64,000 bases of DNA, taken from assembly GCA_964016885.1 (NCBI GenBank), contig OZ024749.1:7502001-7566000 (forward strand), read 5' to 3'. A model generated the notes under the pieces. That model was not told the DNA's origin. It saw only the letters and a list, made by a program, of their open reading frames with translations, and searched no databases. Each line of letters opens with the position of its first letter. Position 1 is the stretch's first letter. Of this stretch, positions 33,271 through 34,373 are shown piece after piece. The DNA is from Eledone cirrhosa (lineage: Eukaryota). Made by a program: the position numbers and the translations under genes.

Positions 33271-33432
33271 TAAATTGGAATAAATGCTCTGAAATAGCGA
33301 TATATATGTGAATATAGACATAGAATATTCGAAAATATTCTGTATGTTTATAATAAACATTTTGAAGACCTAATCGCTATAGAATAGAATACGTCACGTA
33401 TTACAATTAGATTCTCGATAAAAGCAAGGGAA

Positions 33433-33475
33433 GTAATCTACGCGTTTCATTCTCGTTAGAAATCATCAGGACTAC
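33433..33475 (-). ncRNA. Type I hammerhead ribozyme (310-nt family)
   Basis: Exact reverse complement of 33897-33939. Confidence 0.8.
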
Positions 33476-33896
33476 ATATCCAGTGCTTTTATCGAGAATG
33501 ACACAGCTAGAGACTTATAGAATACTTAGCTGTGTACAGGAACTGGTTTGAAAGAGCGGTTGCCGGTCCGGCAGAAATTAGAAATTGGAATAAATGCTCT
33601 GAAATAGCGATATATATGTGAATATAGACATAGAATATTCGAAAATATTCTGTATGTTTATAATAAACATTTTGAAGACCTATAGCGATTAGGTCTTCAA
33701 AATGTTTATTATAAACATACAGAATATTTTCGAATATTCTATGTCTATATTCACATATATATCGCTATTTCAGAGCATTTATTCCAATTTCTAATTTCTG
33801 CCGGACCGGCAACCGCTCTTTCAAACCAGTTCCTGTACACAGCTAAGTATTCTATAAGTCTCTAGCTGTGTCATTCTCGATAAAAGCACTGGATAT

Positions 33897-33939
33897 GTAG
33901 TCCTGATGATTTCTAACGAGAATGAAACGCGTAGATTAC
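33897..33939 (+). ncRNA. Type I hammerhead ribozyme (310-nt family)
   Basis: GTAGTC-CTGATGA-T-TTCT-aacg-AGAA-T-GAAAC-gc-GTA|GATTAC: stem I 6 bp, intact core, palindromic stem III ACGCGT. Confidence 0.82.
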
Positions 33940-34206
33940 TTCCCTTGCTTTTATCGAGAATCTAATTGTAATACGTGACGTATTCTATTCTATAGCGATT
34001 AGGTCTTCAAAATGTTTATTATAAACATACAGAATATTTTCGAATATTCTATGTCTATATTCACATATATATCGCTATTTCAGAGCATTTATTCCAATTT
34101 CTAATTTCTGCCGGACCGGCAACCGCTCTTTCAAACCAGTTCCTGTACACAGCTAAGTATTCTATAAGTCTCTAGCTGTGTCATTCTCGATAAAAGCACT
34201 GGATAT

Positions 34207-34249
34207 GTAGTCCTGATGATTTCTAACGAGAATGAAACGCGTAGATTAC
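34207..34249 (+). ncRNA. Type I hammerhead ribozyme (310-nt family)
   Basis: Identical to 33897-33939, 310 nt downstream. Confidence 0.82.
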
Positions 34250-34373
34250 TTCCCTTGCTTTTATCGAGAATCTAATTGTAATACGTGACGTATTCTATTC
34301 TATAGCGATTAGGTCTTCAAAATGTTTATTATAAACATACAGAATATTTTCGAATATTCTATGTCTATATTCA

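Follow-up and report, generated by a model that had tools for sequence, protein, structure and literature searches.

The locus analysed here raises the question of how a short non-coding unit with a hammerhead motif comes to stand in a genome as two tandem arms that face each other inside a simple (TA)n tract. It lies in Eledone cirrhosa, in a window that denotes the whole stretch of 64,000 nucleotides analysed (assembly GCA_964016885.1, contig OZ024749.1, positions 7,502,001 to 7,566,000), and consists of a head-to-head pair of arms built from a 310-nt unit (Table 1). In line with the preliminary description of this DNA, the period is exactly 310 nt, with identity at lag 310 running through 33272-33372 and 33680-34063 and none at lag 309 or 311, and the unit copies are identical, with 0 mismatches to the unit across both arms. 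The roughly 1.3 inverted and 2.2 forward units reported earlier were measured as 411 nt and 694 nt, respectively, and only the start, formerly placed at 33271, shifts by one base, at an edge blurred by TA microhomology. Phase 1 of the unit was set at window position 33934, the first base 3' of the predicted cut, and the ribozyme strand was taken as sense. In this sense orientation, the 5' ends of the arms face each other centrally and both 3' ends are directed toward the microsatellite.

Table 1. Coordinates of the 310-nt insertion and of its surroundings in the window; phases are those of the 310-nt unit.
Feature	Position	Strand	Remarks
Left arm	33272..33682	-	1.33 units; 3' end 33272 = phase 167 (long 'B' end); 5' end phase 67
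Right arm	33680..34373	+	2.24 units; 5' end phase 57; 3' end 34373 = phase 130 (short 'A' end)
37-nt tail	33272..33308	-	Phases 131-167; on the left outer end alone; agrees with the 30-40 bp tail of Penelope (PMC8557442, PMC11167929)
Head-to-head joint	33680..33689		CTA 3-nt microhomology (overlap 33680-33682) and 7-nt unpaired centre
Type I hammerhead motif, copy 1	33891..33943	+	Core 33903-33909; predicted cut after 33933 (GUA); palindromic stem III ACGCGT
16-bp clamp helix around hammerhead copy 1	33873..33961	+	33873-33888 pairs with 33946-33961
Clamp and hammerhead motif, copy 2	34183..34271	+	Predicted cut after 34243; copy 1 identical at lag 310
Clamp and hammerhead motif, inverted arm	33411..33499	-	Ribozyme 33481-33429
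Long hairpin (phases 59-145) and downstream loop	33992..34103	+	Phases 59-170; contains both putative reverse-transcription start sites
Left (TA)n/(ATGT) microsatellite	30848..33271		Presumed target, probably present before insertion; G skew same on both flanks
Right (TA)n/(ATGT) microsatellite	34374..36327		G skew as on the left flank
Adjacent 466-nt hammerhead-family insertion	38413..39601		Head-to-head; B-type end 38413; separate element of the same class

Two 5'-truncated LINE-type reverse transcriptase (RT) fragments are found nearby, at 29229-30771 on the plus strand and 36329-37847 on the minus strand, each adjoining long (TA)n, and a 53-bp satellite (39601-40752, 21.7 copies) starts directly at the right arm of the 466-nt insertion, 23 nt past its predicted cut.

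The hammerhead with a GUA site, a palindromic ACGCGT stem III and an enclosing 16-bp helix, as read earlier by eye, was recovered as a sequence motif. The core CUGAUGA..GAAA..GUA is present, with CUGAUGA at phases 280-286, a stem I of 6+3 bp and a stem II of 4 bp (phases 288-291 with 296-299) whose base is a U-U mismatch in the window haplotype, and the clamp pairs phases 250-265 with 13-28 over a perfect 16 bp. The type I hammerhead descriptor matched the unit and 0 of 20,000 shuffled units, and folding of the unit gave z-scores of -4.3 as a linear and -4.8 as a circular molecule, with 0 of 100 shuffles folding as well in either form. All five helices named in the preliminary description are exact reverse complements and four of them occur in the minimum-energy fold; the fifth, ATGTTTA/TAAACAT, is displaced there by a longer hairpin. 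At gathering score, Rfam returned no match in the window, and its best match on a 116-nt region, Hammerhead_HH9 with 15.8 bits and an E-value of 0.12 as compared to a gathering score of 52, is weak; scanning 33200-39700 by E-value yielded noise from microsatellites, with HH9 matches confined to the 466-nt unit. Within a single unit, stem III consists of one A-U pair with a palindromic CGCG loop, and between two units it is predicted as a 6-bp duplex of -9.5 kcal/mol. Since stem III pairs between units and cannot close in one, multimers would be expected to cut and the monomer to be largely inactive, and ribozymes of this kind are known to cleave as dimers in multimeric RNA and to be quiet as monomeric circles (PMC4209133). 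Self-cleavage of unit transcripts is predicted here from motif and fold; in Xenopus, one of nine predicted elements cleaved in vitro (bioRxiv 10.64898/2026.07.22.740005).

Rather than a single-locus sequence, the unit represents a dispersed family, with 4,085 exact matches to its 35-nt core in the 3.0-Gb genome and 0 for the reversed control, in a search whose exact pattern misses many arrays carrying core variants. On the forward strand, patterns for the two kinds of outer end described below were counted 659 times for the short end (A) and 778 times for the long end (B), which on doubling puts the family at roughly 1,300-1,550 insertions. It must be very young, because only 49 minority substitutions are found in about 140 kb of arrays. 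The unit has 310 nt and 35% GC, the arrays adjoin (TA)n directly and an LTR is absent. The element contains no internal open frame of at least 150 aa, the frames that touch it being microsatellite frames, and neither the element nor the window holds an RT and GIY-YIG ORF between pLTRs; Penelope-like protein matches seen in the flanking DNA of 9 of 50 loci stand apart from the unit. Attachment of the unit as a pLTR to a Penelope ORF, which the preliminary description had considered, was not found in 49 of the 50 other loci, the remaining one (L049) having an assembly gap. The family therefore is not an autonomous Penelope-like element; it shows the sequence-level features of non-LTR retrozymes, an already known class, to which it almost certainly belongs.

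Like the non-LTR retrozymes described by Cervera and de la Pena (2020, PMC7229834) and Li et al. (bioRxiv 10.64898/2026.07.22.740005), the 310-nt family forms tandem non-coding units in the range of 170-400 nt with low GC, with one type I hammerhead per unit, no LTR and coexisting Penelope-like elements (PMC7229834). A weak palindromic stem III is likewise present in axolotl HHR_Amex1 and a U-U stem II base in HHR_Amex2 (PMC7229834). For published retrozymes cleavage and circles have been demonstrated (PMC7229834), whereas for the 310-nt unit both are predicted. The arrays differ from the retrozymes described in these texts in that most have two arms facing head-to-head, with ends fixed at A and B and set in (TA)n; the word 'inverted' is absent from the main text of PMC7229834, and such an arrangement is not described in the sections of the preprint covered (bioRxiv 10.64898/2026.07.22.740005). 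Newt satellite 2 and similar repeats also have a tandem unit of about 330 nt with a hammerhead that is efficient only as a dimer (PMC7229834), but the 310-nt arrays are short, dispersed and nearly undiverged, with retrotransposition-type ends.

It is the outer ends that distinguish these insertions. In the preliminary description they were seen to merge into (TA)n at differing points of the unit; across the family these points are not scattered, and the ends fall at two fixed sites about 35 nt apart, A at phases 125-139 and B at phases 163-170. When start and end phases were tabulated for the window and 50 other loci, all 82 outer ends of two-armed insertions were found at A or B, and each of the 41 two-armed insertions combines one A with one B (23 AB and 18 BA, no AA and no BB). 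This tabulation covers 52 clusters in 51 sources, 41 of them two-armed and 11 (effectively about 10) single-armed; of the single-armed ones, one is an overlapping-locus artefact and one ends in a gap, and L064 and L065 have one joint in common, which gives 40 independent two-armed insertions. All sources except the window are from contig C1, and 40 of the 51 were selected for an A or B end, a choice that under-samples ends of any other type; in the core-selected subset of the window and ten loci, which was not end-selected, 10 of 10 were A+B, plus one single arm. Coordinate pairing of ends on C1, using 48 A and 53 B ends up to 106 Mb with 7 A ends further along dropped, gave 38 of 38 pairs as A+B (p 3e-12) with 25 ends unpaired, in a set overlapping the 41 insertions. 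(TA)3 is present within 12 nt at 78 of 81 outer ends. These two-armed A/B ends are the Penelope 'tail' signature on a non-coding unit.

The inner ends behave quite differently. They scatter over phases 13-308, the first 130 nt being slightly over-represented (KS p 0.013), and the joints between them show microhomology, mostly of 1-5 nt, in 24 cases, are blunt in 4 and contain inserts in 13. Only 5 of 41 insertions have inner ends at most 15 nt apart, no more than chance (~10%, p 0.39), so the near-palindromic centre of the insertion in the window is not typical. Arm lengths are uncorrelated (rho 0.24, p 0.13), both arms exceed one unit in 33 of the 41 insertions, and the longest arms reach 19 and 27 units. 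Since the outer ends are fixed at A and B, the non-integer copy numbers, which the preliminary description had taken as a sign of a circular or multimeric template, say little about a circle and would mostly reflect internal priming, although a circular template is still the best reading on other evidence. At the flanks, 4 of 40 pairs show a short informative repeat of 7-11 nt, and target duplication is unreadable inside (TA)n. The idea that the RT made the TA flanks de novo is unsupported, as 5 of 40 loci were informative for G/C skew and all 5 had the same sign on either side (p 0.06).

A similar anatomy has been described for the endonuclease-bearing Penelope-like elements Neptune, Poseidon and Naiad, which share with the 310-nt family an inverted, 5'-truncated head-to-head copy with microhomology joints, a 30-40 bp tail often at one end only, (TA)n targeting and an internal RT start downstream of the hammerhead (PMC3846280, PMC8557442, PMC11167929). 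Unlike these elements, the 310-nt family has no ORF and its arms run many times round a small unit, and the tail is found at exactly one end in every two-armed case, where these papers speak of 'often' or 'optionally'.

The same rule operates in the 466-nt family. The kinship of design that had been proposed for the two families holds and extends to the mode of insertion, since 12 of 12 resolved two-armed 466-nt loci have a short end (227-232) opposite a long end (301). The sample comprised 20 loci taken at long ends, of which 12 were resolved, 5 were single-armed in range, 2 were out of range and 1 was without match; the family has at least 1,849 exact long ends, a tail of about 70 nt and at least two subfamilies (window 38413-39601; L161-L180). 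To call the two units unrelated, as was done earlier, was too strong, given a weak co-linear similarity made up of the ribozyme with the clamp (E 0.006), a 12-mer (E 0.07) and a 32-nt stretch (E 3).

The rule is also found in autonomous elements. A GIY-YIG search produced 10,595 candidates, 150 of them scored, and revealed loci with RT and GIY-YIG open frames whose copies end in (TA)n; going by the Cys motif preceding the endonuclease (PMC8557442) and not by a tree, these would be Neptune-type. In one such family, a hammerhead motif lies about 380 nt past the stop, the short end about 125 nt further, and the tail is about 45 nt long. Among the matches listed for this family, which cover C1 up to 90 Mb with 34 of 100 listed short ends and 100 tail marks, 15 of 15 opposite-strand clusters have a short end on one side and a tail on the other, and 3 further clusters are same-strand. 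The young element at L181 and L182 (C1:21871000-21880999 and 63258000-63266000) has two overlapping frames and a 4.2-kb period, and L181 holds a complete head-to-head copy whose two arms are 98.5% identical and each contain open frames of 476 and 775 aa. Both L181 arms are longer than one 4.2-kb period, a hint that the autonomous element, too, may be copied from a tandem or circular template. Alongside the non-coding families, this genome contains young autonomous Penelope-like elements that obey the same end rule and have the same target. DNA similarity of the unit to Penelope-like 3' ends was absent in the 50 loci drawn from the 150 scored among 10,595 GIY-YIG candidates, and neither chimeric insertions, with L049 as a possible case, nor a 272-nt insert in L055, which had no match among the examined loci, identified the helper.

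Sequence variants among the arrays bear on the nature of the template. Among 44 loci of at least 2 units, 19 array-wide haplotypes were found, and private variants covered by both arms occur in every unit of both arms in 6 of 6 cases (17 of 17 units in L058, for example); in L054 a 2-nt deletion is present in 22 units across both arms. None of 18 array-fixed substitutions breaks a pair or touches the hammerhead core, as compared to 27 of 49 minority substitutions (Fisher p 1.3e-5), and six of the fixed ones preserve or add a pair, among them one that restores an A-U at the base of stem II; the 18 exclude two fixed indels, one of which adds a base to stem I (L041, L047). Because the haplotypes are array-wide and the fixed variants spare the helices, new variants pass a one-unit bottleneck and an RNA-structure filter, which fits what would be expected if cut monomers circularise and are copied repeatedly. 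The array-wide fixed variants, the many-unit arms and the fact that 5' ends avoid the predicted ribozyme cut, with 1 of 82 inner ends within 10 nt of it, together make it likely that both arms of an insertion derive from one circular template. Against this stand a minority variant of L054 common to both arms and the mixed state of L068, where 276G marks 7 of 7 units in one arm but, in the other, no more than the inner 2 of 6; such a pattern calls for template switching or for conversion at a later time. In L051, L054 and L055, minority variants recur in a way that reflects later unit duplication, and hence the longest arrays need not equal the rounds of reverse transcription.

Selection on the fold can also be viewed across a longer time, by comparison with an older sister family of about 300 nt (112 exact 23-mers; L131-L160, L082:2440-2870), which is about 70-80% identical to the 310-nt unit. 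The best-conserved part is phases 59-154, with an identity of about 78-80%, stems II and III differ, the ends lie at sites homologous to A and B, and the clamp, on a by-eye reading, is kept through 4 two-sided changes.

The reading that we favour, with a probability of about 0.6, is that these retrozyme arrays arise when a Penelope-like dimer primes one circular RNA off both target strands. Read-through transcripts of arrays would cut themselves, and stem I with the 16-bp clamp would hold the monomer ends for ligation into a 310-nt circle. A dimeric Penelope-like RT/GIY-YIG protein could then bind phases 59-170 and nick both (TA)n strands, one strand priming at A and the other at B, in a way that would produce the observed end pattern. 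Both RTs would circle the same RNA, giving the many-unit arms, and the cDNA 3' ends would finally be joined, which is where the scattered phases and short microhomologies are seen. Its parts are not equally firm: mobilisation of the 310-nt family by Penelope-like machinery is very probable, and two separate priming events per insertion are probable. Support comes from the in vitro work of Frangieh et al., in which a Penelope-like protein, predicted to be dimeric, nicks AT-rich DNA and extends both strands, with two internal start sites bounding the tail (PMC11167929). However, in the same study the start site was the same for both strands and uncut RNA was the main substrate (PMC11167929), and hence the asymmetry and the circular template lack an in vitro counterpart.

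The main competitors differ in what was copied and how often priming took place. Penelope double priming on one linear multimeric transcript of a parent array, or on two transcripts of one parent, without any circle, is unlikely. In its favour, a homogeneous parent array would also yield identical arms, uncut RNA is the main substrate in vitro (PMC11167929), the mixed L068 and the shared minority variant of L054 would be accommodated, and the arms of the autonomous family are just longer than one 4.2-kb period. What it leaves unexplained is the origin of the haplotypes, as new variants start in single units, as seen from the 49 minority substitutions, and 19 array-wide haplotypes need a one-unit bottleneck; moreover, minority variants are almost never in both arms, fixed variants respect the ribozyme fold, and run-off from cleaved linear RNA would end at the cut, where inner ends are practically missing. 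Somewhat less likely still is a single priming event followed by fold-back self-priming or antisense-template copying, in which palindromic DNA is resolved asymmetrically by the endonuclease and a tail is left at one end; Craig et al. (PMC8557442) and Arkhipova et al. (PMC3846280) have explained head-to-head copies with a tail by such endonuclease resolution or antisense-template self-priming. Identical haplotypes in both arms would then be trivial, the joint in the window, whose inner ends are 10 nt apart, makes a near-perfect hairpin with a 3-bp stem and a 7-nt loop, and L041 has a re-primed duplicated joint. Tight fold-back, however, was rejected as a general mechanism, the spacing of inner ends being at chance level, and the uncorrelated arm lengths speak against this reading as well; a copy-back strand also has no cause to stop at a fixed second site, and A and B correspond to the pair of sites at which the RT starts in vitro (PMC11167929). 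Thus, the strict A+B rule, the unrelated inner ends and the common haplotypes are better accounted for by a dimer that starts cDNAs at A and B on one RNA.

Much lower stands the view that the arrays are ordinary solo or tandem pLTRs that belong to an autonomous Penelope-like element, or a satellite that was multiplied in place through unequal crossing-over. Xenopus retrozymes are related to pLTRs (bioRxiv 10.64898/2026.07.22.740005), some later unit duplication is seen and in L049 a unit arm and a Penelope-like ORF are separated by an assembly gap only, but units directly abut with no ORF between them, a pLTR-ORF-pLTR arrangement with the unit occurs in none of the 50 loci, even where Penelope-like protein matches are present in the flank, and local amplification cannot yield more than 1,000 dispersed insertions whose ends are fixed and whose arms are inverted. 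Fold-back artefacts readily arise in long-read assembly where palindromes lie in low-complexity DNA. That the inverted arrays are chimeras of this kind is nevertheless extremely improbable, as arm lengths and end phases differ by a strict rule, the joints are offset, and 14 head-to-head joints are also present in short-read contigs of run X3.

An analogous reaction is known from LINE-1, where twin priming by two target-strand primers on one RNA gives a head-to-head product with a microhomology joint, as here. In LINE-1 this is occasional, uses the poly(A) and a variable internal site, and yields arms covering different parts of a linear RNA, whereas in the 310-nt family it looks like the default, with both sites fixed and both arms repeatedly spanning the whole unit. 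It is an even call whether Penelope-like elements in general integrate by default via asymmetric twin priming, in which a dimer would hold one RNA, nick both target strands and begin a cDNA at either edge of the tail. On a ribozyme-made circle this would amount to double rolling-circle reverse transcription, with two RTs following each other round one 310-nt RNA for as many as dozens of turns. The family would then be a viroid-like RNA lineage under fold selection that cycles between circle and genome, and its arrays would directly record how Penelope integrates.

The new part of these results is the one-A-one-B end rule, common to two retrozyme families and an autonomous element. The preliminary description had anticipated the dispersed family, the kinship with the 466-nt unit and the circular template, and had missed this rule and the name of the known class. 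That a Penelope-like RT copies circles into tandem cDNA was already proposed by the authors of the retrozyme work (PMC7229834), and arguments about which machinery moves retrozymes in animals still draw on co-occurrence and on the phylogeny of pLTRs (PMC7229834; bioRxiv 10.64898/2026.07.22.740005). The origin of the inverted arms and one-sided tail of Penelope-like elements is described as undefined (PMC8557442). The anatomy of the insertions offers unusually direct genomic evidence on the movement of retrozymes by Penelope-like elements and on the formation of inverted arms and tails. If the favoured reading is true, it would be genomic evidence that circles are true transposition intermediates. 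One genome thus provides the 310-nt RNA as a substrate together with predicted start sites and with open-frame proteins that are candidate helpers, for example those of the young Penelope-like families at L181, L111 and L113, which makes the model testable in vitro. In the literature covered, largely open-access main texts, no paper was found on head-to-head retrozyme arrays, the one-A-one-B rule or Penelope-like twin priming; further material that may bear on novelty is in Figures S6 and S9 of PMC7229834, in the PMC11167929 supplement and in the tables of the preprint.

Several further observations were made. Sampled words of the unit are present at 90-100% in 6 public runs (X1-X6, from 4 studies), whose labels name four organisms and none of which is recorded as RNA; such a range of labels could stem from closely related organisms, from mislabelling or mixing of samples, or from horizontal spread. 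Runs X1 and X2 each gave one 340-nt contig (310+30, a closed cycle), as tandem DNA would also do. The 272-nt insert of L055 (L055:3099-3370) is foreign sequence captured at a head-to-head joint. In L049:2125-5575, a unit arm with a long end is followed by the assembly gap and then by a C-rich Penelope-like element that runs in the opposite direction and ends in (TA)n; this may be a chimeric insertion, which would then point to a helper by name. An element of about 200 nt with two head-to-head arms, one about 70 nt longer than the other, and a hammerhead-like core was found in (TA)n at L123:5630-5826 and L119:8505-8705, with related pieces in L049, L113 and L116, and this MITE-like element may be a short product of another Penelope-driven family. 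Finally, L121:8700-9901 contains a tandem hammerhead unit of about 511 nt that is related to the 466-nt family and carries a (TA)n tract within each unit.
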